A stretch of DNA of 64,000 bases from Phycisphaeraceae bacterium (GTDB lineage: Bacteria > Planctomycetota > Phycisphaerae > Phycisphaerales > Phycisphaeraceae), in the NCBI GenBank assembly GCA_963674705.1, contig OY771506.1, positions 1,536,001 through 1,600,000 of the forward strand. Direction: 5' to 3'. This document shows, piece after piece, positions 30,441 to 62,517 of this stretch. The notes below the pieces were generated by a model. It saw only the letters and a program-made list of their open reading frames with translations. It had not been told where the DNA came from and did not search any database. Made by a program: the position numbers and the translations under genes. Numbering within the stretch: position 1 is the stretch's first letter; the number at the start of each line of letters is the position of its first letter.

Positions 30441-31196
30441 TTAAGCTTCAAATGAACTCAACGAGATGATCGGCCGAAGCACCCCGCACATGCCAAGCGC
30501 CGACTCATCGCCGCGCCTGCTCAGTTTAACCTCAGGCTCAACGTTCGATTGATTGGGTAAGTTTTCAATGCGCCTGTGTGTCTTACGCGCCCAGGCCATC
30601 GGCCCGAGTTCCACATTGTTAAGAAGCTCCGGTGCAATCGCCCGCATTGCCCGGCAATGACAATTAAAAAAACGCCGCAGGTCTGCGAAGTAGGCATCAC
30701 GATCGTTATGCCAGAACTTCATAAGCTGCATATAGCCCTCGACCGCTTTGTCGCGCCGTTGTAGCGCACCTTCCAGACCGAGTTGTTTCGGCAGACCGAC
30801 GTACTTCGCGAATAATTCAGGATCGTCATCCACCATTTTGCCGAAGTAGATCCGCGCTTCGCCCGCTTCTGCCAAACCCGCGTTGCCCATCATGCCGAGG
30901 ATGATCAACTCACCATCCGAAATCAGCCTATGCATCACCAATGGTGGGAAGTGTACGTACTGGCCCGGCTCAAGCGAAAGCTTGCGGTAACCATGCTCCA
31001 GATCGTGAAACTCAACAGAGCCTGTACCTTGTAATACGAAGTAACCCTCATCCGTCACGGCATGCACGTGCGGACAGCCTGAATACAGCCCGTCCGGCGC
31101 TGCGTGCTGCGCATAGACCTGTACCTCGGTCAGGCCGATCCCGCCGATCAGCCCGATCGGTTCTTCGGGGTCAACTTTTGGTTGCGCCTCACTCAT
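30441..31196 (-). CDS. Cupin domain protein
   Basis: PHVHAVTDEGYFVLQG...FPPLVMHRLI. ATGA overlap with the upstream gene. Confidence 0.85.
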   Translation of the reverse strand: MSEAQPKVDPEEPIGLIGGIGLTEVQVYAQHAAPDGLYSGCPHVHAVTDEGYFVLQGTGSVEFHDLEHGYRKLSLEPGQYVHFPPLVMHRLISDGELIILGMMGNAGLAEAGEARIYFGKMVDDDPELFAKYVGLPKQLGLEGALQRRDKAVEGYMQLMKFWHNDRDAYFADLRRFFNCHCRAMRAIAPELLNNVELGPMAWARKTHRRIENLPNQSNVEPEVKLSRRGDESALGMCGVLRPIISLSSFEA

Positions 31197-32230
31197 GCAT
31201 CCAGTTCCTCGCGCGTGCATGTTCGGCCGCTCTGGATCGATCGCACCATCATCTCGCACGCAGCCATCGTCTCCAGGTTGTTCCGGACGCTGATGCCCGG
31301 TTCGATGCCTTGCGTGATATACGCATGGAAGTCGCGCAGCATGTCGGACTCGCCATGCGCCTCAACATCGGGCACGTTCACGATCGGCCGGGTGCCGAAC
31401 TGTTCGAGCGGGCGTTCGTTAAATGTTGTGCCGGTTTCGTTGTGGATCAGCGCGCCACGTTCGCCGTGGATCTGCACTTCAAACGTCGCACGCGCGGCAT
31501 CATGAGTGTGGATGTAGTGGCAACGCGCGCCTGTATTGAATGCGATCTGTGCCGAAGTGTTGTTGTCGTACGGGTAAGCCGACCAGTTCGCCGCCCAGCC
31601 GAACGCCGCCATCTCTTTCATCGACCCTATCCAAGACATGAGGTTGTCGAAGTGATGGCAGGACATATCCCAGACCGATGCGAAAGGATACGTCAGCGTG
31701 CGCGGGTTCGGCCGAACGCGGTTCTGTGTGTACATGACCAGGTGCACCTCGCCGGGATGCGCCGGGTTGTCCGGGTCCTTGATCGCCTCTGCGAGCGTGC
31801 GCTCGATCGGGTTATACCGGTAGTTCTGCGCAACACATGCGACCGCATTGTTTTCTTTAACAGTTGCTGCAAGCTGCTGTGCGCTTTGCCAGTCGGGCGC
31901 CATCCCTTTTTCGACCAGCACGGGCAGGCCCGCTTTGATCGCTCTGGTTGCCAACTCCACATGCAGCATGGTCGGCGCACAGATAATCACGCAGTCCACT
32001 TCGGCTTCCTTGAGCGCTTTGTCGTAATCCGTTCCACAAGCCGATTCGGGCAGGTGCGTAATTTCGCGCGCTTTGGCTAGCGCCTCTTCGCTGACATCAC
32101 ATAAGTATGCAGGCGCAAAACCCGTATCCTTATTACAGTGGTCAAGCGGCCAGACGCCACGGTTCGCTACGCCCACGTGCAGCACACGCAGGATTTTCTT
32201 ATTGGTTGTTGATCCGGTCGGTGTGCTCAT
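31193..32230 (-). CDS. Gfo/Idh/MocA family oxidoreductase
   Basis: LCDV, DCVIICAPTMLH, GLPVLVEKG, QNYRY and DMSCHHFD. Confidence 0.88.
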   Translation of the reverse strand: MSTPTGSTTNKKILRVLHVGVANRGVWPLDHCNKDTGFAPAYLCDVSEEALAKAREITHLPESACGTDYDKALKEAEVDCVIICAPTMLHVELATRAIKAGLPVLVEKGMAPDWQSAQQLAATVKENNAVACVAQNYRYNPIERTLAEAIKDPDNPAHPGEVHLVMYTQNRVRPNPRTLTYPFASVWDMSCHHFDNLMSWIGSMKEMAAFGWAANWSAYPYDNNTSAQIAFNTGARCHYIHTHDAARATFEVQIHGERGALIHNETGTTFNERPLEQFGTRPIVNVPDVEAHGESDMLRDFHAYITQGIEPGISVRNNLETMAACEMMVRSIQSGRTCTREELDA

Positions 32231-32237
32231 CACGATC

Positions 32238-33116
32238 TCACTTGCTTTCACGGTAGCGGTTGGCGATGTCTGCGAATTCGTCGGCGTCCCACACGCCGTC
32301 ACGGTAACACACAAGATACTTGAATCTCAGCGTTTCGCCTTCCTCCACCGCCATCGCCTCGTGGAAAAGGAACGCGGCATTAATGTAATTCATTGCCGGG
32401 CCATGCTTGGCGTACCACGGGCTGGGGCTGCGCGGGTTATCCGGATGATCGATCATCGCGAAGCCGATCTTCTGCTCGCTCCCGCCATCCACATCACCCT
32501 GCATCAATAGCCAGTCATAGCTTTCGCCAGCCAAGCCTTCGGCCGTCCCGCCGCCGGGTAATGTGAAAGCGAGGTTGTGCATCTCGCGCGAACCCCGCAG
32601 CGACAATCCGCCGTAACCGCCCCACGTCGTGTAAGGCGTGCGGTCGAGCTTCAAATCCTGCGTGGGCGTCAGCTCTGCTTCCCATTCGATGCTGCGTGTG
32701 TTGTCATCATGAGCCCGGAAAGTCAGCACGCGCATCTCTCGGATCGCCAAACCCGTCGGCCCGGATTCCCAGCGTACGGGATGTGCGATCCGCACGGTAT
32801 TGACATCAATCACTTCACACTTTGGCTCCGCATCATTGACATGGATGCCGTAGGGCTCGTGCTCCTCCCAGAAGTTTGTTTCGTTCAGATACTTGATCGT
32901 AAACCATAATCCGCGGTGCCAGACGTGGTCGGACATTTCAAACCCGCTTAAGCAATGCCCGGCCGGCGTTGATAGCGGGTGCACGCATGCCTTGGGCAGC
33001 TCACTGTTATACCGATAGCAACTGGCGACACGATCCTTCGCGTGCAATACCTCGGCACGATCATTGAACTGCTGATAAATAGACGGGCCGGTCTGCGTGG
33101 ACTTGTTACAGAGCAT
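32238..33116 (-). CDS. 'PmoA family' (DUF6807-like) protein of sugar loci; not a methane monooxygenase
   Basis: HPLSTPAG, DHVWHRGLWF, NFW, GYGGLSLR and DHPDNPR. Confidence 0.8.
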   Translation of the reverse strand: MLCNKSTQTGPSIYQQFNDRAEVLHAKDRVASCYRYNSELPKACVHPLSTPAGHCLSGFEMSDHVWHRGLWFTIKYLNETNFWEEHEPYGIHVNDAEPKCEVIDVNTVRIAHPVRWESGPTGLAIREMRVLTFRAHDDNTRSIEWEAELTPTQDLKLDRTPYTTWGGYGGLSLRGSREMHNLAFTLPGGGTAEGLAGESYDWLLMQGDVDGGSEQKIGFAMIDHPDNPRSPSPWYAKHGPAMNYINAAFLFHEAMAVEEGETLRFKYLVCYRDGVWDADEFADIANRYRESK

Positions 33117-33294: not shown

Positions 33295-34215
33295 TTATTG
33301 CTTCACCGCTCCGCTTGTCAGGCCGCTGATAAATTCACGTTGCAGCGCAAGGAACAGAATCGCCGGCGGGATGATCGCAACCAGCGTCCCCGCCAGAAAC
33401 ACACCATACTGCTGCGCGTATTCACCGATGTATTGATTGAGCACGACCGGCAACGTCAGCTTTTCCTGGCTCTGCAAAAAGATGTTCGGCGCGAGGAACG
33501 AATTCCACTGCGCTAAAAACGTAATCAGGCAAAACGCCCCCGTCATCGGCCGAACCAACGGCATCGCAAGCTGCAGATAGATCCGAAACTCGCTGCACCC
33601 ATCGATCCGCCCGGCCTCGATCAGGTCCGCAGGCACATTCAACAGCGCCTGCCTGAACAAAAAGATCCCAAACGCCGACGCCGCCCCAGGCACGATCAAC
33701 GCCCTGTACTTATCCATCCAGCCAAGTTGATAGATAATTTCAAAGTTCGGAGCAAGCAGCACGACGCCGGGGATCGTCAGCGATGCGAGCATAAACCCGA
33801 GGATGGCGTGCCTGCCTCTAAATCGATACTTCGCCAGCGCGTAACCGCCCATCGAGCAGAACACCATCGAGATAAACGTCGTCGTGCTCGCCAGGAAAAG
33901 CGAGTTGGCGAAGTACCGCCAGAAACTCACCTTGCCCGATACCGTCTGTTTGGCGCTGAACAGTTCGATGAAGTTATCGAGGTTGACCGTTTCAGGCGAC
34001 AGCCGATCGATCGATGGTAGGAACATGTACTCATTGAGCACGGTCTTGTCTTTGAACGCAGCGCAGAAAAGCCAGACGAACGGCAATGTCATAATGATGG
34101 CCGCAAGGATCAGCCCGGCCCAGCGTGCATACGTCCAGCCCCACTTACGACGTACAAGCCACATGATGGGGAACACCGTCGCGATGATCAGCAATACGAT
34201 TTGCAGTGCGTTCAT
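33295..34215 (-). CDS. Carbohydrate ABC transporter permease (MalG-like)
   Basis: EAA loop LIEAGRIDGCSE; GYALAK; WNSFL. Confidence 0.93.
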   Translation of the reverse strand: MNALQIVLLIIATVFPIMWLVRRKWGWTYARWAGLILAAIIMTLPFVWLFCAAFKDKTVLNEYMFLPSIDRLSPETVNLDNFIELFSAKQTVSGKVSFWRYFANSLFLASTTTFISMVFCSMGGYALAKYRFRGRHAILGFMLASLTIPGVVLLAPNFEIIYQLGWMDKYRALIVPGAASAFGIFLFRQALLNVPADLIEAGRIDGCSEFRIYLQLAMPLVRPMTGAFCLITFLAQWNSFLAPNIFLQSQEKLTLPVVLNQYIGEYAQQYGVFLAGTLVAIIPPAILFLALQREFISGLTSGAVKQ

Positions 34216-35168
34216 CCATCGTTCTCCATCGTGCCCGAAAGCTTGATCTGGATCAGGCTGATCGTGAGGATGATGAGCGTAAGCAGCCAGCCTACTGCCG
34301 CGGCTGTGCCGAGGTCGCCGTTTTCAAACGCGTTTGAATAGAGGTAGCCCACGATCGTCAGCCCGCTGTTCTTCGGGCCGTAACCTTGCAGCAAAACGTA
34401 AGGCAACTCAAACAACTGGAACGAACCGATCGAGCTGACGACAACGACAAACGTCGCCACGGGCGTCACGGCCGGCCGCGTCACGTTCCAAAACACACCC
34501 CAGGGCCCGGCCCCATCGATCCACGCAGCCTCAACCAAATCACGGCTCACGTTCTGCAGCGCCGCCAGGAAGTAGATCATGTTGAACCCGACATAAAGCC
34601 AAAGCGCCGCGATGACGACAGCCGGCATCACCCAACGCGGGTCGGTCAACCAACGCTGTTCGAGCCCGAAACCCGTCAGTATATGCACAATGCGGTTGAA
34701 CAAACCGTAGCGCGGCGTAAACAGCATCGTAAAAAGGATCGCGACAAATACCTGCCCGACCAGGTTCGGCGCAAAGATCGCAAGACGGAAGAAACCCTTG
34801 AGCCTGCTCTTGCCGGAATTGAGCAGCATCGCCAGGCCGAAGCTTAGCGGCAACTGGATAAGCAGCGAACAGACCGCGAAGAAGGCGGTGTTGTACAAAG
34901 CCCGATGGAAGTCCGGATCGGCCAGAACAAACGCGAAGTTGTCCAACCCAACGAAACGCCGAACGCCCGGGCCGCTGGTCATGTGGAACGACAGGATCGT
35001 GGCATAAAGAAGCGGATACAGAAAGAACACAAAAGTCACAAGGAAGTACGGCAACAGGAAACTATAAGGCGTAATCGCCTTGCGAAACTTGTATCGCCGC
35101 GCGCCGGCCGACGGCTTCGCGGCAAGCACGCCGGAAGCGACGGCCTGAGGTGTCTGGACCTGGCTCAT
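34212..35168 (-). CDS. Carbohydrate ABC transporter permease (MalF-like)
   Basis: FVGLDNF, LAALQNV, VEAAWIDGAG and FQLFE. Confidence 0.93.
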   Translation of the reverse strand: MSQVQTPQAVASGVLAAKPSAGARRYKFRKAITPYSFLLPYFLVTFVFFLYPLLYATILSFHMTSGPGVRRFVGLDNFAFVLADPDFHRALYNTAFFAVCSLLIQLPLSFGLAMLLNSGKSRLKGFFRLAIFAPNLVGQVFVAILFTMLFTPRYGLFNRIVHILTGFGLEQRWLTDPRWVMPAVVIAALWLYVGFNMIYFLAALQNVSRDLVEAAWIDGAGPWGVFWNVTRPAVTPVATFVVVVSSIGSFQLFELPYVLLQGYGPKNSGLTIVGYLYSNAFENGDLGTAAAVGWLLTLIILTISLIQIKLSGTMENDG

Positions 35169-36562
35169 GACCCGCCCCCTTCCTGATCTGACTCACCCGT
35201 ATCCACTTGAAGAAAGATGTTCCGGGCCATGACTTCACGCGTCCGATCCGCTACCCGCTTGATTTCTTTTTCGGTGTATTCCCGCAGGCCGACTTCGCCG
35301 TGCTCCCGGTGATACAGTGATACATTGGCAAACGCCTCGGATAACCGGTTGACCGCCATCTTCATGTACGCGTTGGATTGTTCCTCGGGCACCTGCGGCG
35401 CAAGGTCGGCATACATCCGCCCGATACGCTGATCGCTGAAGTATGGATTAGGCTTATCAAACGACGGCTCGTTCCACGCACTGCGCAACGGCGAAATAAT
35501 CTGCGTCTGCTCGAAGCGTCGGCCCTGCTCTTTCCTATTAAAGTACAGATGCATCGCCAGCTCCCAAGCAAGCTCGACGTCTTTACATTGCTCGGTAATC
35601 GCTAGCCCCGTCCCGCCCCACGTGCTCGTACGTGATCCACCTTCTTCCCACGCAGGCAACGGCATCAACGCCATCTTCCCTTCAAGCTGCGGCACATCCA
35701 TCTGGAACTGCCGCGTCCGCCAGTCAGGACACATATAAAATAGACACAACCCATCCAGCATCGATCGCGCCAGGTTCTGCCCCCACCCGGCATCGAAGGC
35801 AATCCGGTCTTGTCCCTGCACCTGCTTCAGATACCAAAGGAACACCTCGACCGTGCGCTCATCATCAAATGCAATATCACCTTGCTCATCAAACAACTGT
35901 CCGCCGCGTTGTAACAGCAACAGCCGCAGCGCATCGCCGCCCTGGATCGGCAAGTTGATCATGTAGCGATCGGGCACACCGTCGCCGTTAAGATCCTTCG
36001 TCGCAACCTCCCGCCCGACACGGGCAAACTCATCCCAGGTCGTGAGCTTGTCGACATCGATGCCCAGTTCCTCGACCAGGTCTCGCCGGTACGCCAGCAT
36101 GACGGGGTGCAGGTCGTGCGGCAGGGCGAAGATGTGTCCGCGATCCGTCCACTTGCCGAACCGGCTTGTGACGACGTTATCGATCAGGCCCGTATCGTTG
36201 ACGCGCTTAGTCAGGTCGACAAAGCGAACTTCTTCGATCGGCCCCTTGGTGAAGACACCGAGTGTGTCGTACATCAACTCGACCATGTCCGGCACATCCG
36301 CACCGACCTGCAAAGCGGCCTGGAGCCGGCTCTGCAAGGCACGCTGTTCGACGACCTGGATCTGGATGCGAACATCGTGATCCTTCTCGAACTGCTCGAT
36401 GACCGGGACGTAAGCGTCGGCGTGTTCCTTAACGAACGTAGCGAAGACCAGATCGGGTTGTGGGCCGGACTGTCGGAGTAATGCATCGTAGCCCACAACC
36501 GCACCGGCAATGAGGGCGAGGATGAGGATCGCCAGGGGTGCTTGGCCGTAGGGGAAGTTCAT
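35165..36562 (-). CDS. Sugar ABC transporter solute-binding protein
   Basis: N-terminal membrane anchor, VPDMV, FALPHD, YRRDL, TWDEF and WGGTGLAI. The ATG at 36562 follows ggag. Confidence 0.88.
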   Translation of the reverse strand: MNFPYGQAPLAILILALIAGAVVGYDALLRQSGPQPDLVFATFVKEHADAYVPVIEQFEKDHDVRIQIQVVEQRALQSRLQAALQVGADVPDMVELMYDTLGVFTKGPIEEVRFVDLTKRVNDTGLIDNVVTSRFGKWTDRGHIFALPHDLHPVMLAYRRDLVEELGIDVDKLTTWDEFARVGREVATKDLNGDGVPDRYMINLPIQGGDALRLLLLQRGGQLFDEQGDIAFDDERTVEVFLWYLKQVQGQDRIAFDAGWGQNLARSMLDGLCLFYMCPDWRTRQFQMDVPQLEGKMALMPLPAWEEGGSRTSTWGGTGLAITEQCKDVELAWELAMHLYFNRKEQGRRFEQTQIISPLRSAWNEPSFDKPNPYFSDQRIGRMYADLAPQVPEEQSNAYMKMAVNRLSEAFANVSLYHREHGEVGLREYTEKEIKRVADRTREVMARNIFLQVDTGESDQEGGGS

Positions 36563-36646
36563 GAGATCGATCACTCCAAGACGATGGCCGAATGATGGTA
36601 CGGGTATTGTCATCCAATTCGGCGGCGCCAGCGCATCCTACACAAA

Positions 36647-36660
36647 GTAAAACGTTTTTT
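36647..36660. promoter_or_regulatory. LacI-type operator
   Basis: gtaaaacgtttttt upstream of the ABC operon. Confidence 0.7.
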
Positions 36661-36836
36661 AAAGGCTATTGGCCTATTATTCGGCTTTGGCAGACAATCG
36701 AATCTTGCCTGGTGAAGTAGAGAACCCGATCTGACAGGCATTCAAAAAGAATAGCACGCCCGAAAAGCGTGGAATATCCGACGAAAAAGACTGAAAGGCG
36801 TTGCGAATCTGGCGGCGATGGGCTAAACTTGCGTTG

Positions 36837-36850
36837 GTAAATCGTTTTTC
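36837..36850. promoter_or_regulatory. LacI-type operator
   Basis: gtaaatcgtttttc upstream of the GH10 gene. Confidence 0.6.
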
Positions 36851-36909: not shown

Positions 36910-38046
36910 ATGGATCAGTCACTAGAAACATCTGACGGCCCGCCCCAGGCGATCCAAACTCCCGCCAAATCCAAGCTGGGCAACCGTTTAACTAAACCGG
37001 TCGCGGTAGAGTTGCCTCTGCGTGATCCCGGCCACGGCCTGAAGGTGGGCTGCGCGATCGACAGTGTCAAGCCGGGCCAGATCAACCCAGCCGAGTTGGC
37101 GCTGCTCCGTCGGCATTTTGATGTGCTGACGCCCGAAAACAGTATGAAACCCGCCCTGATCCAGCCGGAAGAGGGACGATTCGAGTTCACCAAGGCCGAT
37201 GAGCTGCTCGACTTCGCTCAGGCCAACAACCTGGAAGTGGTAGGCCATTGCCTGGTCTGGCACCAGCAGTGCCCGCAGTGGTTCTTCCGTGATGGCGACG
37301 CCCCGGCCGGCCGCGAACTATTGCTCAAGCGGATGCGCGAACACATCAAAGCCGTCGTCAGCCGATACCGGGGCCGGGTCTTGGGATGGGACGTCGTCAA
37401 CGAAGCCATCGACGATAAGGACGGCCAATACAAGCAAACCCCCTGGATCGAACTGGCCGGCGAAGGTTTTATCGAACAGGCGTTCATCGCTGCCCATGAG
37501 GCGGACCCGTCGGCCGAACTTTATTACAACGACTACAACATCGAAAAAACCGAAAAACGCGAAAAAACCCTGCATTTATTGCGAAAACTCCAGCTGGCGA
37601 ACATCAAACTCGATGGCGTCGGCATCCAGGGCCACTGGATCCTCGACCAGGTACCTTACGACGAAATCGAAGCGGCGATCCTGGCGTACAACGGACTCGG
37701 TTTGAAAGTGATGTTCACCGAGTTGGATATTGATGTCATTGATCGGCCGGACTGCTCCGCGGATGTTTCGCTGCACGCCGAGTACACGCTCGAGCAGGAC
37801 CTCTATCGTGACGGTTGTCCGCCGGAGGTGCTCGAACGCCAGGCCGAGCAATACGCCAGGCTGTTCGAGTTGCTTCACCGCCACCGCGACAAGGTCAGCC
37901 GCGTCAGCTTCTGGGGTCTGCACGATGGGCGAAGCTGGCTTAACGAGTGGCCGGGCCAGCGAACGAACCACCCGCTTTTGTTCGACCGTGATTGCCGACC
38001 GAAACCGGCCTACCGGCGGGTCATCCAACTGCTGCGGGGCCGTTAA
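36910..38046 (+). CDS. GH10 endo-1,4-beta-xylanase without an evident signal peptide
   Basis: TPENSMK, GHCLVWH, WDVVNEA (acid/base), YYNDYN, GIQGH and FTELDI (nucleophile). Confidence 0.92.
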   Translation: MDQSLETSDGPPQAIQTPAKSKLGNRLTKPVAVELPLRDPGHGLKVGCAIDSVKPGQINPAELALLRRHFDVLTPENSMKPALIQPEEGRFEFTKADELLDFAQANNLEVVGHCLVWHQQCPQWFFRDGDAPAGRELLLKRMREHIKAVVSRYRGRVLGWDVVNEAIDDKDGQYKQTPWIELAGEGFIEQAFIAAHEADPSAELYYNDYNIEKTEKREKTLHLLRKLQLANIKLDGVGIQGHWILDQVPYDEIEAAILAYNGLGLKVMFTELDIDVIDRPDCSADVSLHAEYTLEQDLYRDGCPPEVLERQAEQYARLFELLHRHRDKVSRVSFWGLHDGRSWLNEWPGQRTNHPLLFDRDCRPKPAYRRVIQLLRGR

Positions 38047-38097: not shown

Positions 38098-38140
38098 ATA
38101 AAACGTTTTTTCTTGACACAATCATGAATCGTGATACATT
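38098..38140 (+). promoter_or_regulatory. LacI-type operator adjoining a sigma70-like promoter
   Basis: ataaaacgtttttt immediately before TTGACA(38113)-N16-TACATT. Confidence 0.7.
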
Positions 38141-38206
38141 TTATCAGGCGTCATGCCGCCATTTGGAGAAGCCGTTCCCATCAAACATGATGTGCGCTTG
38201 AAATCG

Positions 38207-38220
38207 AGTAAACGTTTTAT
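38207..38220. promoter_or_regulatory. LacI-type operator (second site)
   Basis: agtaaacgttttat. Confidence 0.6.
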
Positions 38221-38296: not shown

Positions 38297-38938
38297 ATGA
38301 AACGTGGGATTCTTCTTGCAGCAAGCTTGGCGGCTGGCCTCGGTTTGGCGCAGGCCGTGCAGGCGGACGTGGTCATCGGCGACTTCGAGGGCGCCGCAGA
38401 GACCGGTTGGGGCCAATGGATCAGCAACTCCGTACAGCCGTTCGTGGACATCAGTATCAGCAACGAAGCCGCGACCTCCGGCAGCTACAGCGCCAAGGTC
38501 GACAAGGCCGGCTGGGCACAGACGCTGGCCTACAGCGCCGGCACCGCCGGGACCATCGCCGACTTCGAAGCCAATTCCGTGATCGAATTCGATCTGATCT
38601 TCGCGGAAACCACGGAAAGTGGTTGGGCGGAAATGTACGACCTTGCCCTGAACTCACAGTACGGCGGATTCACCTCGATCGCCACGAGCCCTGTTCAAGT
38701 CGGCTGGGGCGATGGCGGCGGCGGCGCCCAGACGGTCCACGTTGCACTGGACTACAGCGCTATCCGCCAGACCTGGATCGACAACGGCTCGCCGGGTTGG
38801 GTCGAATTGATCTTCGCATTCAATGATGACGGCAATCATCCCGTGAAGTACGTCGACAACGTCACGCTGACGCCTGAACCGGCCAGCCTGGCGCTGCTGG
38901 GTCTGGGCGGCCTGGCGCTGGCGTCGCGTCGCCATTAA
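38297..38938 (+). CDS. PEP-CTERM protein with a CBM-like beta-sandwich domain
   Basis: Signal peptide AVQA|D; IGDFEG...YVDNVTL, Trp-rich; tail TPEPASLALLGLGGLALASRRH. Confidence 0.88.
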   Translation: MKRGILLAASLAAGLGLAQAVQADVVIGDFEGAAETGWGQWISNSVQPFVDISISNEAATSGSYSAKVDKAGWAQTLAYSAGTAGTIADFEANSVIEFDLIFAETTESGWAEMYDLALNSQYGGFTSIATSPVQVGWGDGGGGAQTVHVALDYSAIRQTWIDNGSPGWVELIFAFNDDGNHPVKYVDNVTLTPEPASLALLGLGGLALASRRH

Positions 38939-38981
38939 CGACAGTTGCTTGTCTGCAAACACGCATTCCTCCAAGGCGGAA

Positions 38982-42266: not shown

Positions 42267-42280
42267 GAAAAGCGTTTTAC
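42267..42280. promoter_or_regulatory. LacI-type operator
   Basis: gaaaagcgttttac upstream of the secreted GH10 gene. Confidence 0.65.
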
Positions 42281-51944: not shown

Positions 51945-52116
51945 ACCCCTATACGCTGAAAAAACAAGAATTTAGATGTTAAACTTGACGCATATTGTCG
52001 GCGATACTTTGTATCATGTTGGCCACTTGGTGTAGCCGATGTTGAATCGGCTTGGGTAATTTTAATTGGGGGCTTGTGGTGATGAAGGGGCCGTTTGCAC
52101 TCAGGCTTACAAGCGA

Positions 52117-52761
52117 ATGGAAACACGTCCAACGATCTATCTTGTAGACGACGACCAGGCAGTGCGTGATTCGTTAAAGTGGTTGATTGAATCAGCGGGG
52201 TGGCTCGTTCAATCCTACGAATCGGCACAGCCGTTGCTCGATGAGCTCGAAGCCGCGCAGCAGTTGTTGTCTGGATGCATTATTGCTGATGTCCGCCTGC
52301 CGGGCATGAGCGGTATGGCGCTGCAACTGGAATTGGTGCGGCGGAAAATCAACCTGCCGTTCATTATCATTACCGGGCACGGTGATGTGGCGATGGCGGT
52401 GCGCGCGATCAAAGCCGGTGCGCTCGACTTTATTGAGAAGCCCTTCTCAGACAAGTTGCTGCTTGACCGCATCGAAGACGCGATGCGCATCGATGAAAGA
52501 CGCCGGATTGATGAGAAGCAGTATCAACACATCAAACAGTGCTATGAGACATTGACCGCCCGGGAGCAGCAGGTGATGGGAGAAGTCGTCAGCGGCAAGT
52601 CCAACAGGCAGATCGCCACTGATTTGAACGTCACACAGAAGACGATCGAGCAGCACCGCGCCCACGTCATGACCAAGATGAAAGCCGATAGCCTGGCCCA
52701 TCTGGTCCGCATGGCGGTGGCGATCGACGTGATCCCCGCCCCACTGCCCAATGATGTCTGA
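52117..52761 (+). CDS. FixJ-like response regulator (receiver plus LuxR HTH)
   Basis: LVDDD, ADVRLPGMSG, ITGHGDV, FIEKPF and LTAREQQV..SNRQIA. Confidence 0.93.
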   Translation: METRPTIYLVDDDQAVRDSLKWLIESAGWLVQSYESAQPLLDELEAAQQLLSGCIIADVRLPGMSGMALQLELVRRKINLPFIIITGHGDVAMAVRAIKAGALDFIEKPFSDKLLLDRIEDAMRIDERRRIDEKQYQHIKQCYETLTAREQQVMGEVVSGKSNRQIATDLNVTQKTIEQHRAHVMTKMKADSLAHLVRMAVAIDVIPAPLPNDV

Positions 52762-54237: not shown

Positions 54238-55296
54238 TCAGACATCGATAAGCTCGGCCGACTCGCCGCGGAAGAAGTTGCTCCGCTTCGGTTCCAGCAG
54301 CATCGGCGCATCCCACGCCTCGTCACGCAGGAACCAACCGAAGCATTGCTCGAGGATCGAACTGACATCCGGGATATCCAGGCCCGCGATGCCCGGCGTC
54401 ATAAAGCGTGCCGGTGATTCGATATTCACCGCACAAATCGAGATATCCCGCCCGACCGCCAGACCCTCTTCCCAACAGGCCCGCATCGCGCCAAGCGCCG
54501 CGGGGAACGTCGTGCCGACCACCGCTGAGCCGCTCAGGTCCTGATCTTTAAGTTTCTCAAGCATGACCCGGTGGGCGTAAGGTGTCGGGTCCTCGAACGA
54601 GCGGGCCGGGTTTTCCCAGAGTTCGCCTTGGAGGCCTTCGCGTTTGATCCACTCCCGCCAGAGCCCGACACGTCGTTCGACTTCTGCGTTTTTCGTATGC
54701 GTCGAAATACAATGGATCTTCTTGTGCCCGTTTTTTTTCAGATGGCGGAAGACCTGGCGCACGTGTGTGTCGGGGAACAGGCGGATCGATTTGATCCCGT
54801 GCCGGCTCAGGTCGATGTCCAGCGAAACACACTTGCCATCACGCATCGCGCTGAGGACGCGCTCGGGTACATCACTTGAACTGGGGATCACGATCGCGCC
54901 ACCGCGATGACAGACCGCATCCATCACAACCGGGTCGTCCCAGTGCACATATTGCACCGGGCGCAGGTCCAGGTTGTGTTCGCGGGTGGCAACCGCCATG
55001 GTTTGGCGCAACTGTGTGAGGAAGGGCGAGGGATAGGCCGGGTAGAGCATCACGACCTGTGCGACTTGTTCTGTGGCTTGGTAATGCGGATTAACCTGTA
55101 GTGTTCCGCCCGTGCCGCGCTTCAGCACCCTTTTACCGATCAGCGCCTGCACCGCTTTGCGTGCGGTCATGTGGCTGACGCCGGTCTCCGCAGCGATCGT
55201 GCGTTCGCCGGGGAAAACCTCGAGCAGGTAATCACCCTGGCGTATCCGCCTTTCGATCACAGCCATGACCTCGGTGTATTTCGCTGAACGGGCCAC
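54238..55296 (-). CDS. Regulator with a GntR winged HTH and a LacI-type sugar-binding domain
   Basis: FPGERTIAAETGVSHMTARKAV; C-terminal GHKKI and GLAVGRDISI. Confidence 0.88.
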   Translation of the reverse strand: MARSAKYTEVMAVIERRIRQGDYLLEVFPGERTIAAETGVSHMTARKAVQALIGKRVLKRGTGGTLQVNPHYQATEQVAQVVMLYPAYPSPFLTQLRQTMAVATREHNLDLRPVQYVHWDDPVVMDAVCHRGGAIVIPSSSDVPERVLSAMRDGKCVSLDIDLSRHGIKSIRLFPDTHVRQVFRHLKKNGHKKIHCISTHTKNAEVERRVGLWREWIKREGLQGELWENPARSFEDPTPYAHRVMLEKLKDQDLSGSAVVGTTFPAALGAMRACWEEGLAVGRDISICAVNIESPARFMTPGIAGLDIPDVSSILEQCFGWFLRDEAWDAPMLLEPKRSNFFRGESAELIDV

Positions 55297-55439: not shown

Positions 55440-55482
55440 TTGACTTTAACCCTCACGCTGATATTATAACACTAGTGTTATA
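55440..55482 (+). promoter_or_regulatory. Promoter with an overlapping perfect 18-bp palindrome
   Basis: TTGACT-N16-TATTAT; TATAACACTAGTGTTATA at 55465-55482. Confidence 0.75.
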
Positions 55483-55549: not shown

Positions 55550-56491
55550 ATGACGACAACTGGCCGAAAAGCCGAACCGGGGTTCACGCTGATCGAATTG
55601 CTGGTGGTGATCTCGATAATCGCGCTTCTGGTCGGGATCCTGCTGCCTGCTTTGGGTGCGGCACGCAAGTCCGCCCAGCGGATGAAGTGCCTGGCGAACC
55701 TGAGGTCGATGGGCCAAGGCGCCCAGTCCTTCGCAACCGACCACCAGTATTACATCCCGATCAGCAGCAGCGACCTGGCGTGGGTGAATAACGGCACAGG
55801 TTTTCCTTCCGAACTGCGTGGAAAAATCGCGTCGTATAACGACCCAGCCTACCCGCGTATGAAAGACTGGGCCAGCGCGCTGGTGCCTTACCTCGGCGAC
55901 TCTTCGCAGGACGTCCCTTTCGACACCGCCGAGCCTAAAGTAGTGTCGATGTTCCGCTGCCCGAGTGATCCATATGAAGAAGGCCACGAGGTTGTCAGCA
56001 ACATCAGCGGGTCTCAACAGGGGATCCCGCTACCGATCTCGTTCAGTGTAAATGCGGATGTGACCACCTACGACGACACGCCCGGCGATGGCAGGGCTTG
56101 GTGGATGCCTAACGGCGGCGGGATGAACGTTCAGGAAATCCAGGTCTACAACGGCGATGCGTCTCCGGGGAGTCTCGACCGCATCCGGTCTATCTCAAAA
56201 ACCATGCTCTATGCCGATGGGGGCACGCGCTGCTATCCCAGCAGCTCGCCTATCCGCCGCGGCATCGTTTTGATGTACACCGCGGATAAGCGATTACCCA
56301 ATAAGGACAATCCCGGCACACTCGATGCGATCTACCAGTCCAACATCTTCCGGGAGAAGTTGCCACTGGCTGAGATCAATGCGGAGGATGACCGGCACAG
56401 TAACGCGCTGAACGTCGCGTTCGCGGACGGGCATGGTTCGTCGCATCAACCCGGAGAATTTCAGGAGGTTTATCTTTCGCCGAACAAGTAG
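55550..56491 (+). CDS. Prepilin-type N-terminal cleavage/methylation protein (DUF1559-like, H-X9-DG)
   Basis: [39 protein letters not shown] and RHSNALNVAFADGH. Confidence 0.93.
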   Translation: MTTTGRKAEPGFTLIELLVVISIIALLVGILLPALGAARKSAQRMKCLANLRSMGQGAQSFATDHQYYIPISSSDLAWVNNGTGFPSELRGKIASYNDPAYPRMKDWASALVPYLGDSSQDVPFDTAEPKVVSMFRCPSDPYEEGHEVVSNISGSQQGIPLPISFSVNADVTTYDDTPGDGRAWWMPNGGGMNVQEIQVYNGDASPGSLDRIRSISKTMLYADGGTRCYPSSSPIRRGIVLMYTADKRLPNKDNPGTLDAIYQSNIFREKLPLAEINAEDDRHSNALNVAFADGHGSSHQPGEFQEVYLSPNK

Positions 56492-56604: not shown

Positions 56605-58185
56605 ATGAAGTTTTACAAAGCCGGCTTAACGGCCATCGCATTGTTGGCATTAGCAACACCGACCTACGGCACGTTCGTCATCGCGGGTGAAGTGCAGGAC
56701 GAACAAGGCGACCTCGCCGACTGGGACCCGACCGGTAGTTCGCTTCTGATGAGCGACCTGGGCGGCGGTATCTATACAATCTCGGTCCCCAACCTGCTCG
56801 ACGGCACGCGCTACGACTTCAAGGTCGTAGATGATGAAGGCACGCCCCCGGCCGTGTGGGGCGATCCGGAAATCACCCCCAACCAACTCACCCTCATCGG
56901 TGACGCGGACGGCACGGTCCAGATCACCGTGGACACCAACGTCACCAACGCCATCGGCAGCTTCGCCACGTGGATCAACTTCGACAACGCGCCGCTGCAT
57001 GTGGTCGGTGACTTCATGGATGAAGCCGGCGGCTTCGCCGACTGGGACCCGGCCGACCCGGCATTCGCCATGACCGATCAGGGCAGCGGTTACTACACGT
57101 TTGATGCTGTGATCAGCACGCCCGGTGTGTACAACTTCAAGGTTACCTTCGGCGACGGCTGGGACGATCAGATCGGTGTCGGCGGATTCAACAACAACGC
57201 CGCGACCTATCAGTTCATCACCTCGGCTGTCGACGAACCTGTCACGATGTTCGTCGACCTGTCGAACCGGCAAATCGGTGCGACAGCCGCGGTGTATCAG
57301 ATCGGCACACTCACGGTTGCAGGTGACTTCCAGACCGAACAGGGCGACCCCGCCGACTGGGATGTTGAGAACAGCTCTATTGTCATGAGTGAATCCGGCG
57401 GCGTGTATACCGTCACCGTCAGCAACCTCAGTGACGGTGTCGCGTATGACTTCACGATCTTCAATGACGCGGGCTCCCCGCCGGTATCTTCGAGTGATCC
57501 GAAGATCACACCCGTTGATATTACGATGTACGGCGATGCGTCCGGCGATGCCACCATCACGGTTGATACCAACGTTACGAACCTCCAGAACAACCCATCC
57601 GTGTGGGTGGACTTTGACACCGCCCCGCTGCAGGTGGTTGGTGACTTCATGGATGAAGCCGGCGGTTTAGCCGACTGGGACCCGGCCGACCCGGCCTTCG
57701 CCATGACCGCTGAAGGTGATGGCTACTACACCTTCGATGCCGTTATCAGTACACCCGGCACCTACGTGTTCAAGACCAGCTTCGGCGCGGGTTGGTCCGA
57801 CCAGGTCGGCACCGACGGCTTCAGCGATAACGCTCAAGTATTCGTCTTCGAAACGACCATAGCCGACGAAGCGATCACCATGTTCGTCGACTTGGCGAAC
57901 CGTCAACTTGGTCTCGTTTCCGCGAGCATCCCCGGCGATCTGAACGGTGACGGCTTCGTCGGTCTGGATGACTTGGATATTATCCTCAGCGCATGGAATC
58001 AGAACGTACCCCCGGCCGACAGCGCGGCCGATCCCTCCGGTGATGGTTTTGTCGGCCTGGATGACCTGGACATCGTGCTCAATCACTGGAACGAAGGCAC
58101 GCCCCCCAGTGCAGTCGTGCCCGAGCCGGCAACCGTGGCGCTTCTGGGAATGGGTTTGTTCGCGACGATGAAGCGTCGAGGCTGA
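56605..58185 (+). CDS. Non-catalytic PEP-CTERM protein with four pullulanase-X25/starch-binding-like domains and a dockerin-like module
   Basis: A-B-A-B repeats (AGxxQxEQGDxADWD; VVGDFMDEAGGxADWDP..YYTF..PGxYxFK), dockerin-like pair and VPEP tail. Confidence 0.85.
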   Translation: MKFYKAGLTAIALLALATPTYGTFVIAGEVQDEQGDLADWDPTGSSLLMSDLGGGIYTISVPNLLDGTRYDFKVVDDEGTPPAVWGDPEITPNQLTLIGDADGTVQITVDTNVTNAIGSFATWINFDNAPLHVVGDFMDEAGGFADWDPADPAFAMTDQGSGYYTFDAVISTPGVYNFKVTFGDGWDDQIGVGGFNNNAATYQFITSAVDEPVTMFVDLSNRQIGATAAVYQIGTLTVAGDFQTEQGDPADWDVENSSIVMSESGGVYTVTVSNLSDGVAYDFTIFNDAGSPPVSSSDPKITPVDITMYGDASGDATITVDTNVTNLQNNPSVWVDFDTAPLQVVGDFMDEAGGLADWDPADPAFAMTAEGDGYYTFDAVISTPGTYVFKTSFGAGWSDQVGTDGFSDNAQVFVFETTIADEAITMFVDLANRQLGLVSASIPGDLNGDGFVGLDDLDIILSAWNQNVPPADSAADPSGDGFVGLDDLDIVLNHWNEGTPPSAVVPEPATVALLGMGLFATMKRRG

Positions 58186-58323: not shown

Positions 58324-60636
58324 ATGACCGCGTTCAGCACCCTCATCAATGTTTTTGTACATAAACGGTTCTCACGCCGTGAGGGATACCTCCGGACCCT
58401 CATGGCGGCGGGGAGCCAACGTTTGGGTTCAACACTAGGCGCATTGTTGGTGTGTGCGCTGAGTTTGGTATGTGCAAATCCGGCGCCGGCTGTTCCCGCG
58501 GTCGAAGACATCGTGATGTACGAGGTCAACCTTCGTGCTTTCAGTGATGCGGGTAATCTGGCGGGTGTCACCGCACGACTCGACGATATCCAATCGCTCG
58601 GTGCCAATGTCATCTGGCTAATGCCCATCCATCCGATCGGACAGATCAACAGTGCCGGCGGATTGGGTTCCCCTTACTCTGTAGCAAACTACACGCAGGT
58701 CAGTAGCGAGTACGGCACGCTTTCCGACCTGACCACACTCGTCGACCAGGCCCATCAGCGCGGCATGTATGTTGTCATGGATTGGGTCGCCAACCACACC
58801 GCGTGGGACAATCCCTGGATCGCCAACACCGATTGGTACACACAAAACGCGCAGGGTGAAATCATTTCTCCTGCGGGCACGGGCTGGAATGATGTAGCAG
58901 ATCTGAACTACGACAATACCGACATGCGCGCCGCGATGGTCAGCGCGATGCAGTACTGGGTTACCGAGGTCGGTATCGATGGCTACCGCGCCGATGCGGC
59001 CGACTTCGTGCCCTACGACTTCTGGCAGGACGCGATCGCTTCCGTGCGTGTCAGCACGACGCGCGACCTGCTCATGCTTGCTGAAGGTGCACGAAGTGAC
59101 CACTACGCTGCGGGTTTCGACATGACCTACGGCTGGGACTTCTACGGCACGGTACAGAACGTGTTCAATTCGTCTGCATCAGCAACGGCGCTCTATCAAA
59201 GGTACGTCAATGAGTTTTCATCCGTACCGACGGGCTCGGGTATCCTGCAATTTACCACCAATCATGATGAGAGCGCGTGGGACGCAACACCCGTCGAACT
59301 GTTCGGCAGTCTCGAAGCCTCGCTCGCCGCGTACGCTGTCACCGTTGCTTACGGCGGCACACCGCTTGTCTATAACGGCCAGGAAATCGGCTGGGAAGAT
59401 AACATCCCCTTCTTCACCAAGGCTCCGCTCGACTGGGACACCGGCCAGACAACCGAGCAGTGGTACACGCAATTACTGAACGCCCGCGCCGATCATGCCG
59501 CACTTCGGCAAGGAGACATCAGCGATCAGAGCACCAGCAATGTCGCATTTCTTGTGCGCGAATATGAGGGCGACCAGGTGCTTGTCATGGTTAATACTCG
59601 TAATTCATCGCAACAGGTGCAGGTCCCCGTTTCGCTTCAAGGCAGTTGGAGCGATCTACTTGCCAATCAGGCGGCGACGTTAAGCGCTACACGCACACTC
59701 GCACCATATGAAGTGGTTATCCTCGGCAAGACCGTCGTGCCCGCGTTTGTTGTTGCGGGTGAATTACAGACAGAGCAAGGCGATCCTGCCGACTGGGACC
59801 CGGTTAATAGCTCGCTGATCATGGTCGAAGCCGGCGGTATTCACAGCGTTACGGTGAACAACCTTGTCAATGGCGTCGCCTACGACTTCAAGGTAGTCAA
59901 CGATCAAGGCTCGCCCCCCGCCGAGTGGGGTGACCCGGAGATTACGCCGAACCAACTCACCGTCATAGGAGATGCCGACGGCTCAATTACGATCACCGTC
60001 GACACGAATAGCATCAACAACATTGGTGAGTATGCAACGTGGATCAACTTTGATAACGCCCCCTTGCAAGTTGTCGGCGACTTCATGATAGAAGCCGGCG
60101 GCGCAGCCGATTGGGACCCTTACGATGATGCTTTCAACATGACCGATCAGGGCGATGGTTACTACACTTTCGACGCTGTCATCAGCACGCCCGGCATCTA
60201 TCAGTTCAAAGCCACTTTCGGCAACGGCTGGGACGACCAGGTTGGTATCGATGGCTTCAACAATGACGCGATCACCAAAGGCTTCGAGATCACCGAGGCG
60301 GATCAAAGCATCACGCTTTATGTTGATCTTGCCAGCCGTGAACTTGGTGTGTTGTTTGTCACTCTCGAAGGCGACCTCAACGGCGACGGCTTTGTTGGGC
60401 TCGACGATTTGGATATCGTCCTCGCCGCATGGAATCAGAGTGTTCCTCCTGCTAACAGTGCGGCCGATCCTTCAGGCGACGGCTTCGTAGGATTGGATGA
60501 TCTGGATATCGTGCTCAACCACTGGAACGAAGGCACACCGCCAACAAGTAATGTCAATATCCCCGAACCCGCTTCATTGATCTGTTTAACGACCTTGTCG
60601 GCGGTATTGTTACGACATACCAGGCAATCCGCTTAA
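58324..60636 (+). CDS. Secreted GH13 alpha-amylase with two X25-like domains, a dockerin-like module and PEP-CTERM
   Basis: DWVANH, DGYRAD, MLAE and TNHD; the same A-B domains as the upstream gene; IPEP tail. The start may be the ATG at 58402. Confidence 0.9.
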   Translation: MTAFSTLINVFVHKRFSRREGYLRTLMAAGSQRLGSTLGALLVCALSLVCANPAPAVPAVEDIVMYEVNLRAFSDAGNLAGVTARLDDIQSLGANVIWLMPIHPIGQINSAGGLGSPYSVANYTQVSSEYGTLSDLTTLVDQAHQRGMYVVMDWVANHTAWDNPWIANTDWYTQNAQGEIISPAGTGWNDVADLNYDNTDMRAAMVSAMQYWVTEVGIDGYRADAADFVPYDFWQDAIASVRVSTTRDLLMLAEGARSDHYAAGFDMTYGWDFYGTVQNVFNSSASATALYQRYVNEFSSVPTGSGILQFTTNHDESAWDATPVELFGSLEASLAAYAVTVAYGGTPLVYNGQEIGWEDNIPFFTKAPLDWDTGQTTEQWYTQLLNARADHAALRQGDISDQSTSNVAFLVREYEGDQVLVMVNTRNSSQQVQVPVSLQGSWSDLLANQAATLSATRTLAPYEVVILGKTVVPAFVVAGELQTEQGDPADWDPVNSSLIMVEAGGIHSVTVNNLVNGVAYDFKVVNDQGSPPAEWGDPEITPNQLTVIGDADGSITITVDTNSINNIGEYATWINFDNAPLQVVGDFMIEAGGAADWDPYDDAFNMTDQGDGYYTFDAVISTPGIYQFKATFGNGWDDQVGIDGFNNDAITKGFEITEADQSITLYVDLASRELGVLFVTLEGDLNGDGFVGLDDLDIVLAAWNQSVPPANSAADPSGDGFVGLDDLDIVLNHWNEGTPPTSNVNIPEPASLICLTTLSAVLLRHTRQSA

Positions 60637-60771
60637 ATATCACTTCTATTTAGTTCTTGCGAAAAACATCTGCGTAACAGACAATCTGTTGCGTTGCATA
60701 TATCGACCGCTTGCAGGGCAGGGAGCGGCGCACATCTATCATTCACTTGGTGGCTATTGGGAAGCGTCGGC

Positions 60772-62517
60772 ATGTCAGAACCGTTGGATGAGAAAACCTT
60801 ACTTGAACAAACCGAGGCGAAGCCTTTCATGGCGCGCATCCCGGTTTATCTGCGCTTGTCCGGGCCGGGCTTTCTTCAATCGGCGTGCACGATAGGTGGA
60901 GCGACGCTCGGCGCATCATTATTCCTTGGCGTGATGGTTGGCTATCAGGGTTTGTGGATACAACCCGTCGCAATGCTGCTCGGGTTGACGATGTTGACTG
61001 TGATTGTTTACATCACGCTGTCGACAGGTGAAAGGCCCTTCCGCGCGATCAATCGCCACATCAATCCGGTGCTTGGTTGGGGCTGGCTGATCGCGACGAT
61101 CGCCGCCAACATGATCTGGGGCTTACCGCAATATAACCTGGCCGCTGGGGCGCTGACACAAAACGTTTTGCCCGAACTGCTCGGGCCCGGCAAACCATTG
61201 GGCGGCGAAAGCGGTACACTCGGTATGGGTATCGCCTCGGGCCTTATGGCGGCGATGGCGGTGGCCGTCATTTGGTTCTACAAGGGACGAAGCGCCGGCG
61301 TTAAATTGTTTGAAGGTCTGATTAAACTCATCGTTGCGATGATCGTTCTGTGTTTTGTCATCATGGTCATCAAACTCGTGACAACCGGCGGTCTGCCCGT
61401 TGGCGAAGCCCTGGCGGGTTTCGTGCCTGATCCCAAACTTCTTTTCCAGCCTGCCGATGTTTACATGCCCGTGCTCGAACGTTGCGGTGAATCCGCCGGC
61501 TTCTGGCAGCATCGAATCGTTAACACCCAACGCGACATCATCTACGCATCCATCGCCTCGGCTGTCGGTGTGAACATGACGTTCCTGCTGCCCTACTCGA
61601 TCCTCGCACGCGGATGGGGAAAGGCCCACCGTACACTTGCCGGCTTCGACCTTTTTATGGGTTTGCTCCTGCCCTTCGCGTTCGTTACGTCCTGCCTGGT
61701 CATCGTCTCCGGCGCAGTTTTTCACGGCCATTACGACGAGCAGCACATCAATTACAGCTTTGTTCAACAAGGTATGGATGCAGCCAATCCGCAGTACCGC
61801 GCCAACCTGATCGCTGTGACTGAATCAACCATGGGCCGAGATGGATGGGCACAACTCGATGCGAACGGCAAAGCCGAATCGCTTGATGCAACACCACGTG
61901 CCGATCGCGAGATGGCGTCCATGCTGATCCGCCGGAGTGACAAAGACCTTTCAGCAACCCTCACCCAACTCTTCGGCACATCCATCGGGCGCATCATCTT
62001 TGGTATCGGCGTCTTCTTCGTCGCCCTTTCCACCGCAACTGTCTTGATGCTTATTAACGGATATGCGGTATGCGAGGCCCTCAACCGCGAACACACGGGC
62101 CTTACATGGCGCATCGGCTCGTTGCTACCGGTGGTTAGCGTGATCGGCCCATTCTTCTGGGGGCATATGGCGGCGTACCTTGTCGTACCAACGAGCATCA
62201 TCGGCCTGATGATGTTGCCCGTCGCGTTCTGGTCGTTCTTCCTGATGCTCAACAGCCGGTCGGTGTTGCGCGACGCCTGTCCGCGTGGGATCAAGGGGCT
62301 GTTGATCAACATTATCGTCGGCGCGATCACCATGCTGTTTACGGTCCTCAGCGTCTGGGCGATGTGGGGCAAAGCTGAGACTAAAGGCACCCCCGGGCGT
62401 GTCGGTTTAATACTAACACTATGTCTTTTACTAATTGCGGTGCTCGTTACGCATATCACCACTCACGCCCGGAGAAGCGGCGCAGACCGTGATCGCACAG
62501 CGGATACCGGCAGTTGA
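60772..62517 (+). CDS. Nramp/MntH-related (APC superfamily) transporter, substrate uncertain
   Basis: LSGPGFLQSACTIGGA, AVGVNMTFLLPY and about 11-12 TM helices. No DPGN motif. Confidence 0.75.
   Translation: MSEPLDEKTLLEQTEAKPFMARIPVYLRLSGPGFLQSACTIGGATLGASLFLGVMVGYQGLWIQPVAMLLGLTMLTVIVYITLSTGERPFRAINRHINPVLGWGWLIATIAANMIWGLPQYNLAAGALTQNVLPELLGPGKPLGGESGTLGMGIASGLMAAMAVAVIWFYKGRSAGVKLFEGLIKLIVAMIVLCFVIMVIKLVTTGGLPVGEALAGFVPDPKLLFQPADVYMPVLERCGESAGFWQHRIVNTQRDIIYASIASAVGVNMTFLLPYSILARGWGKAHRTLAGFDLFMGLLLPFAFVTSCLVIVSGAVFHGHYDEQHINYSFVQQGMDAANPQYRANLIAVTESTMGRDGWAQLDANGKAESLDATPRADREMASMLIRRSDKDLSATLTQLFGTSIGRIIFGIGVFFVALSTATVLMLINGYAVCEALNREHTGLTWRIGSLLPVVSVIGPFFWGHMAAYLVVPTSIIGLMMLPVAFWSFFLMLNSRSVLRDACPRGIKGLLINIIVGAITMLFTVLSVWAMWGKAETKGTPGRVGLILTLCLLLIAVLVTHITTHARRSGADRDRTADTGS

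Follow-up and report, generated by a model that had tools for sequence, protein, structure and literature searches.

Prepilin-like proteins with PEP-CTERM partners in predicted xylan and starch loci of a Phycisphaeraceae bacterium: a candidate pilin-coded design for glycan capture

A 64,000-nucleotide stretch of DNA from a Phycisphaeraceae bacterium (G000:C1:1536001-1600000 of a single-contig, 5.54-Mb genome; hereafter the window) carries two glycan loci, a xylan regulon at 30441-49290 (locus 1) and a starch locus at 52778-60636 (locus 2), in each of which the gene for a prepilin-like protein is followed directly by one for a non-catalytic protein with a PEP-CTERM tail. To judge from sequence, this design is real, conserved and apparently regulated, and we rate the chances as evenly balanced that the pilin of each locus belongs to a shared pilus or pseudopilus as a minor or tip subunit, specific to its substrate, and captures polymer. 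The genes concerned had been named in an earlier reading of the DNA letters (the sequence-only reading), and Pfam and NCBIfam scans of 43 open reading frames (ORFs) in the window confirmed all of them as real and correctly placed. The description of two adjacent loci of one design stood as regards the design; a FixL/FixJ-like PAS kinase and response regulator (49536..52761, plus strand), assigned here to neither locus, lie between the two. As had been claimed, no TonB-dependent receptor was found among the 43 ORFs scanned.

The association of pilins with PEP-CTERM genes extends across the genome. Our own gene calls yielded 4146 genes, with 67 pilins recognized by pattern and 397 genes for PEP-CTERM or dockerin proteins; another 4 pilins, whose starts were miscalled or whose motif is degenerate, brought the total to 71 genes in 61 clusters. 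A PEP-CTERM/dockerin gene adjoined 42/67 pilins, compared with a mean of 10.8 and a maximum of 22 in 2000 random draws and a mean of 13.7 and a maximum of 23 in a local-shift control. The arrangement in which such a gene lies directly after the pilin was present in both window loci, as the sequence-only reading had it, and at just 22/67 pilins genome-wide (random-draw mean of 4.8). More than half of the PEP-CTERM/dockerin genes (219/397) were separated by >8 genes from any pilin.

Neighbors within 3 genes of a pilin were then classified by Pfam (E ≤ 1e-8, labels assigned by hand; 336 neighbors outside the window) and compared with 240 neighbors of 40 random anchors. Glycoside hydrolases (GH), polysaccharide lyases or carbohydrate esterases were found near 27/61 pilin clusters versus 6/40 anchors (p = 0.002), sugar regulators near 27/61 versus 1/40, sugar transporters near 13/61 versus 2/40, and PEP-CTERM/dockerin genes near 51/61 versus 14/40. 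Viewed from the regulators, a pilin lay within 3 genes of 25/43 LacI-type (PF13377) proteins against a background of 8.8% for all genes, two PF13377 matches outside called genes being assigned to the preceding gene. A regulator was near 24/71 pilins versus 66/397 PEP-CTERM/dockerin genes; an alternative control consisting of PEP-CTERM genes far from pilins (9/219 near a regulator) is biased low. Within the genome, the two pilins of a paralogous pair lie in loci of one type, for example the ROK/GH20 and LamG/sialic loci. The proposed genome-wide check thus bore out non-random placement of pilins near PEP-CTERM genes, carbohydrate-active enzymes (CAZymes) and sugar regulators. Other surroundings were also observed. 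Two pilins with PEP-CTERM genes lie beside NikR, a ZnuA-type ABC transporter and DUF4465 in what resembles a metal-uptake version of the design (L016 and L017; G000:C1:1885000-1895000), a phosphodiesterase-TPR gene lies within 3 genes of four pilins (L003, L013, L022 and L029), and related pilins stand in tandem, four at G000:C1:4353963-4358629 and three at 1486051-1488911, with no CAZymes nearby.

Both pilin promoters are predicted to be under sugar-operator control. In locus 1, pairs of predicted LacI operator sites were found between the ABC transporter operon and the untailed GH10 gene (36647..36848), after that gene and before a small PEP-CTERM gene (38098..38218), and in the divergent gap between the GH2 gene and pilin 1 (46566..46846), with a single site upstream of the tailed GH10 gene (42269..42280). 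The LacI-type site gave 17 strand matches in the window, corresponding to 9 sites, where 4.55 matches were expected and 0/100 shuffles reached 17; seven of these sites fall between genes of locus 1, two of them ahead of pilin 1. When one mismatch was allowed, the 12-base site had 21 matches in the genome, of which 7 are in locus 1, 3 are at a xylulokinase/xylose-isomerase-like gene pair 3.9 Mb away, and the remainder are elsewhere. This distant pair, which we take from its sequences to be xylB-xylA, includes a gene whose 75% homologue has a xylose-isomerase-like Pfam match, and the predicted operator is thus common to pilin 1, the xylanases and distant xylose genes. In locus 2, a perfect 18-bp palindrome (55465..55482) lies over the −10 boxes of two divergent promoters, those of pilin 2 and the regulator; it is kept with 2 mismatches in the related locus L117, and a related palindrome precedes another pilin in a GH99/71/65 locus, beside a 43% paralogous regulator. 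The claim of operator-controlled pilin genes is accordingly upheld at the sequence level for both promoters, by tests that are post hoc because both patterns were first read from the window.

The pilin 2 head matched proteins at 33 places in 30/200 other genomes of the class, and 20 of these places were fetched for inspection of their neighborhoods. GH13 was present in 18/20; of the other two, the first has the starch-locus LacI together with an X25 PEP-CTERM gene, and the second is cut off by a contig edge. The layout of locus 2 was seen in L117 only. The other 17 of the 18 GH13 loci represent a different starch locus, with a large, usually PEP-CTERM-tailed GH13 and, where the stretch reaches, LacI, a second GH13, pullulanase and ABC genes. 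The binders, regulator and transporter of this alternative locus are unrelated to those of locus 2, and its small PEP-CTERM neighbors belong to several families with no BLAST links between them. Given these 17/18 differently built loci and unlinked small PEP-CTERM families, the pilin clade is constant and its partners vary, which in sequence terms favors substrate over partner specificity for the pilin 2 clade. A tree was built from 33 pilins (302 columns; L132 was left out as incomplete). In it, window pilin 2 and that of L117 grouped with the genome's own paralogue (bootstrap 94), and this group nested among pilins of the alternative starch-locus type, the base of the clade not being settled. 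One pilin clade, by this phylogeny and gene content, is found to serve two starch loci of different parts.

Other clades were followed by Pfam on 76/336 ORFs and by BLAST against this genome on all. The GH53-locus pilin had a homologue beside GH53 in 1/1 locus, and the sialidase-type pilin had homologues beside BNR proteins in 2/3 loci; for the GH10-, GH53- and sialidase-type pilins, the homologue of highest similarity was in each case in a locus of matching kind. Matches to the GH20/ROK-locus pilin were found in 0/200 class genomes, and to the pilin 1 head in 0/200 class genomes and 1/60 family genomes. This sole pilin 1 homologue (45%; L255) is followed directly by a 33% homologue of the pilin 1 partner, in a locus that holds three GH10, GH52 and an orthologous LacI.

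Inspection of the pilin sequences revealed a class III signal peptide with Glu5 in both, each scoring above the cut-offs of PF07963 and TIGR02532. Pilin 1 (46968..47900, plus strand; A|FTLIE) and pilin 2 (55550..56491, plus strand; G|FTLIE; starch-locus clade) share residues 6-60, over which 36/55 are identical by BLASTP, and beyond that a few later motifs, in agreement with the claim of a shared N-terminal helix and divergent central domains. The assignment of both to DUF1559 (PF07596) was only half upheld: pilin 2 passes (28 bits versus a cut-off of 23.3), and pilin 1 had no match at E ≤ 0.01 and is outside the genome's 17 matches. A C-terminal H-X9-DG is exact in pilin 2 and in 20/71 genome pilins and reads H-X9-GG in pilin 1; several pilin homologues are annotated under the H-X9-DG name. 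Of the 71 pilin genes of the genome, 68 retain both Glu5 and the A/G|F cleavage motif.

The AlphaFold model of pilin 2 (86 sequences; pLDDT 93) has an N-terminal helix of 51 residues (14-64). PDB pilins were among the matches of a profile search with pilin 2, and type IV pilins made up 22/27 structural matches of the model, aligned from residue 12 to ~308. No solute-binding or carbohydrate-binding module (CBM) fold was among the structural matches listed, such a fold still being possible. Pilin 2 is thus predicted by modeling to consist of a constant helix and a sheet core, weakly pilin-like, with ~190 extra residues, mostly loops. Pilin clades differ in these inserted loops, and we infer that the variable loops bind sugar. 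Aromatic residues conserved in the pilin 2 head (residues ~36-313) include W107 (W/Y in 86/86 sequences), W185, Y243 and position 266 (W in 61/86), part of which may have a structural role. A model of pilin 1 (9 sequences; pLDDT 33) was unusable, and a predicted complex of the pilin 2 head with four X25 modules scored 0.00, which counts neither way.

Selection was assessed against L137, a locus that is near-identical to that of the window and was the only one kept, because scans by pilin 1 alignment caught N-terminal patterns of mostly unrelated pilins. The dN/dS values of 0.04 and 0.10 for the pilins indicate purifying selection, and a reading as antigenic variation was rejected on these values at the scale of the L137 comparison. 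In a 5.7-kb tract (window 43800-49500) comprising most of GH2, the promoter, pilin 1 and its partner, divergence from L137 was ~0-6%, as against ~10% in the downstream flank and 31-45% in GH2 at 42900-43800; this pattern looks like a recent block exchange together with a swapped GH2 module. In L137 itself (11052-12323), an in-frame stop, either genuine or a sequencing error, splits the N-domain of the pilin 1 partner from its dockerin/PEP-CTERM tail.

The remaining genes complete the two loci. Locus 1 begins on the minus strand with a cupin/Gfo-Idh-MocA oxidoreductase/DUF6807 operon (30441..33116; by Pfam), which lies downstream of the ABC genes and is 56-69% conserved in xylan locus L255, and with two permeases and the solute-binding protein of a sugar ABC transporter (33295..36613; PF00528 twice and PF01547), orthologous at 56-68% in xylan locus L235; Pfam found no ATPase gene for this transporter within the locus. 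On the plus strand follow an untailed GH10 xylanase (36910..38046; PF00331, E = 7.8e-97), whose PDB xylanase matches include intracellular enzymes; a small non-catalytic PEP-CTERM protein absent from the sequence-only reading (38297..38938; PF07589), with atlas look-alikes scoring 0.91-0.92 that include CBM27 and SGBP-B clusters, a CBM-like nature being a lead only; and a LacI-family regulator (39216..40277; PF00356 and PF13377), orthologous at 49-60% in xylan loci L228, L235 and L255. A GH10 with a dockerin-like pair and a PEP-CTERM tail (40616..42205; by Pfam, the tail motif by eye) and a large secreted GH2 with a C-terminal CBM60-like module, matched below cut-off, and no PEP-CTERM (42356..46504) are on the minus strand, upstream of pilin 1 and its dockerin/PEP-CTERM partner (48019..49290, plus strand). 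The partner's N-domain matches no Pfam family and has a galactose-binding-like atlas lead (0.85). A repeated inverted motif at 40308-40384, after the LacI gene and between convergent genes, is REP-like or a terminator.

Locus 2 has, on the minus strand, an untailed GH13 (52778..54163; by Pfam; 56% in L117) and a regulator that joins a GntR-type helix-turn-helix (HTH) to a LacI-type sugar-binding domain (54238..55296; by Pfam; 67% in L117), so that, as claimed, each locus has its own sugar regulator. Pilin 2 is followed on the plus strand by a predicted starch binder of four X25 modules, dockerin and PEP-CTERM (56605..58185; PF22058, E = 5.7e-37, four stretches) and by a GH13 α-amylase with two X25 modules, dockerin and a PEP-CTERM-like tail (58324..60636; by Pfam, the tail motif by eye). 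The two GH10 and the two GH13 proteins all have their catalytic motifs. A same-family hydrolase without the tail is indeed found in each locus, the two differing by eye in that no signal peptide is evident in the GH10 and the GH13 signal is lipobox-like. As to transporters, the ABC permeases and binding protein of locus 1 were confirmed; the supposed APC transporter of locus 2 is an Nramp-like membrane protein (60772..62517, plus strand; PF01566) of doubtful membership. It is absent from starch locus L117 and from G144, and a role as a starch transporter was not supported, since homologues in 5/5 fetched regions lay outside starch loci; the gene probably does not belong to locus 2. A second starch locus of the genome (G000:C1:1224235-1240065) contains a PEP-CTERM GH13 that was nearly missed by Pfam, LacI, pullulanase, a second GH13 and a fused solute-binding protein-permease. 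Elsewhere in the window, a GH94-like phosphorylase (97-1842) and a lone GH43 (20194-21105) are CAZymes outside both loci, and a multiheme cytochrome with paired CXXCH and TPR motifs has a 4Fe-4S/NrfD fusion upstream (2658-8286).

Machinery on which these proteins could depend is encoded elsewhere in the genome. PF07589 was matched by 3 window proteins; a C-terminus of PEP motif, transmembrane segment and basic residues is present in window proteins, and 3 exosortase (PF09721) matches are present in the genome. Five secretins, 18 PF00437 ATPases over the cut-off and 2 prepilin peptidase matches were also found, with GspG/K/F genes accompanying the GspD-type secretins. No pilus assembly gene was detected by Pfam in locus 1 or 2, and neither locus encodes a channel; the analogy to SusC developed below therefore depends on shared secretins elsewhere. 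The genome's single TonB receptor belongs to a signaling cassette of receptor, YfiR and CHASE8 kinase (L093:9635-14563).

The following sequence of events would account for the design. The pilin of each locus, under its own predicted sugar operator, would be induced by the cognate sugar; the prepilin would be cleaved and then assembled into a shared filament, where its variable loops would recognize glycan, so that the pilin might bind polymer and keep it at the cell or pull it there. PEP-CTERM binders and endo-enzymes, presumably located at the cell surface, would cut the polymer, and the products would pass to inner-membrane uptake. In the most speculative step, long glycan may pass a secretin, driven by retraction.

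Several observations weigh against this scheme. The link of pilins to PEP-CTERM genes (51/61 clusters) exceeds that to CAZymes (27/61), 20/61 clusters are without a sugar signature, and some adjoin metal-uptake or phosphoesterase genes. Most of the starch tracking comes down to a single locus passed on by descent and to one locus switch; the substrate-over-partner reading depends on that switch, and kin are not independent. No GH13 lies within 3 genes of the pilin 2 paralogue (C1:3281332), and the second starch locus of the genome is without the pilin that its orthologues carry. Homologues of the GH10-locus pilin C1:4838172 were in xylan loci in 2/12 cases, the closest (46%) among them; the other 10 loci comprised 2 GH144, 1 GH9, 1 GH81, 2 GH2-like and 4 without a recognized CAZyme. 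GH16 was found in 0/9 homologue loci of the GH16-locus pilin and GH66 in 0/2 of the GH66-locus pilin, so that the substrate link, upheld for the starch clade across the class, failed for 2 of the 5 other clades that have homologues. L228 and L235 have the orthologous LacI and another pilin clade than L255; two clades in orthologous xylan loci (L235 versus L255) imply that substrate does not fix clade. None of L228, L235 and L255 yielded a match to the locus 1 operator. The best structural match of the pilin 2 model is weak (Z = 4.5, rmsd 3.8, 121 aligned), and Foldseek returned nothing at E ≤ 0.001. In Tuwongella, according to the accessible part of one study, N_methyl plus SBP_bac_10 proteins fractionate unlike plain pilins (PMC8567305).

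It is possible, if on balance unlikely, that the pilin recognizes protein rather than sugar, serving as a cargo-specific pseudopilin through which a shared type II system exports or displays the co-encoded PEP-CTERM proteins. The strongest neighbor signal is indeed PEP-CTERM/dockerin (51/61 versus 14/40), non-sugar loci included; GspD-type secretins with GspG/K/F genes are at hand; pilin 1 and its partner are adjacent in L255 too; and the pilin 2 paralogue sits with a PEP-CTERM pair, away from amylases. Against such an adaptor, the 219/397 distant PEP-CTERM/dockerin genes mean that most cargo has no private pilin, and the pilin 2 clade is retained beside unrelated small partners, an argument that is incomplete because both amylase types share the GH13 fold. 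A doubtful alternative, to which we give less credence, is that no filament is formed: the helix would be an inner-membrane anchor, and the head would bind periplasmic oligosaccharide for transporters or signaling. The lack of assembly genes in either locus and the detergent/SDS fractionation of the family in Tuwongella (PMC8567305, in the part available) are consistent with this possibility, as are FecR-domain proteins beside such pilins in 5/27 fetched loci (L244, L248, L250, L251 and L252, four of them with LamG). A pairing of FecR-sigma cassettes with pilins was also considered for the present genome and rejected, as no FecR match was obtained in it. The same position adjoining FecR is taken by TonB receptors in other phyla. 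A membrane anchor would leave retention of Glu5 and the A/G|F motif in 68/71 genes to be explained, together with the pilin-like character of the pilin 2 model through its C-terminal strands; locus 1, moreover, already has a solute-binding protein of its own.

Generic adhesion, in which pilins with unspecific heads are co-switched with nutrient loci for attachment to particles and clade tracking reflects operon inheritance, appears improbable. Tracking does fail at ≤39% identity for several clades, and orthologous xylan loci are occupied by two pilin clades. By contrast, the pilin found in the newly built starch locus is of the starch clade and not any of ~70 other pilins, the heads are under the purifying selection described above (dN/dS 0.04 and 0.10), and paralogue pairs share locus type, as at the ROK/GH20 and LamG/sialic loci. 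That there is no functional link, numerous pilin genes simply falling by chance in glycan-rich regions, is very improbable: with ~70 pilins and 397 PEP-CTERM/dockerin genes some proximity is to be expected, and several pilins do lie among housekeeping genes, but enrichment exceeded every random, circular-shift and local-shift control, and the operator sequences and cross-genus conservation speak against coincidence.

The polysaccharide utilization loci (PULs) of Bacteroidota, with their SusC/SusD pair, offer a close comparison for the reading of the pilins as substrate-specific subunits. The window loci share with them the clustering of a regulator, endo-enzyme, non-catalytic binder and inner-membrane transporter (that of locus 2 being doubtful) and the possession of one private specificity gene per substrate. 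They differ in having no SusC/SusD or channel, the private gene being a prepilin, and in carrying PEP-CTERM tails instead of lipoprotein anchors on binders and enzymes. The design thus works like a PUL and is not a member of the class, because no SusC/D pair was found in the loci. The cell-surface location of processed PEP-CTERM proteins is itself a proposal (PMC1569441; this and the papers below are cited from the accessible parts of their text).

Literature searches, in which subscription papers were mostly not covered, found no paper that treats glycan loci with a pilin and a PEP-CTERM gene as a system, and a term search gave no mention of pilin or pili in the available portions of 10.64898/2026.10.06.756941, PMC13526803 and PMC11685898. 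Another comparison is the alginate operon of Verruconatronum alginivorum, also a PVC bacterium, in which a PulG-like pseudopilin (pgaptmp_000050; 251 amino acids, 67 homologues) lies inside a substrate-induced degradation operon and is itself alginate-induced, with a proteome value of 0.513 in one of three conditions and 0 in the others (PMC13274419). Its authors take the pilin as a type II secretion part and, in the text available, describe no system; neither PEP-CTERM pairing nor clade tracking was seen there, and its likeness to the window pilins is by description (PMC13274419). The N_methyl DUF1559/SBP_bac_10 (PF07596) proteins of Planctomycetales are likewise an expanded, prepilin-type, genome-scattered family, often flanked by secreted-protein genes, for which the accessible text gives no function or glycan link (PMC8567305); pilin 1, by contrast, is not among the 17 matches in our genome. 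The Sulfolobus bindosome also combines sugar-specific class III signal proteins with type IV pilus-like assembly and sugar uptake, but it is archaeal, without an outer membrane, and has ABC solute-binding heads where the pilin 2 model matches pilins (PMC3047682). In Akkermansia, the MUL2 type IV-like pilus is a PVC pilus proposed for glycan attachment and uptake; it differs in being one conserved locus with its own PilM and not dozens of substrate-locus pilins (PMC13174399).

In Planctopirus and Gemmata, dextran binds pili-like fibers and enters the periplasm (PMC5394234), a phenomenon that genes such as those of the window could underlie, although these organisms are of another planctomycete class and the accessible text identifies no genes. 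A 2025 review states that the players in the route of large polysaccharides into the planctomycete periplasm are unknown (PMC12673574). The window offers two pilins, each with a predicted inducer, operator and substrate, and with the starch clade in 30/200 sampled class genomes, the uptake question can be put to experiment with defined genes. Should the heads prove specific, the pilin clades of a PVC genome might reveal its substrate preference, much as SusC/D clades do in Bacteroidota. A broader and tentative proposal, which we think rather unlikely to hold in full, is that PVC bacteria practice TonB-independent uptake in which dozens of interchangeable, substrate-specific pilins, each induced with its own nutrient locus and mounted on a shared retractile filament, pull polymers and other nutrients through secretins; if true, this pilin-coded counterpart of the SusC/D repertoire would be the missing machinery for planctomycete macromolecule uptake.

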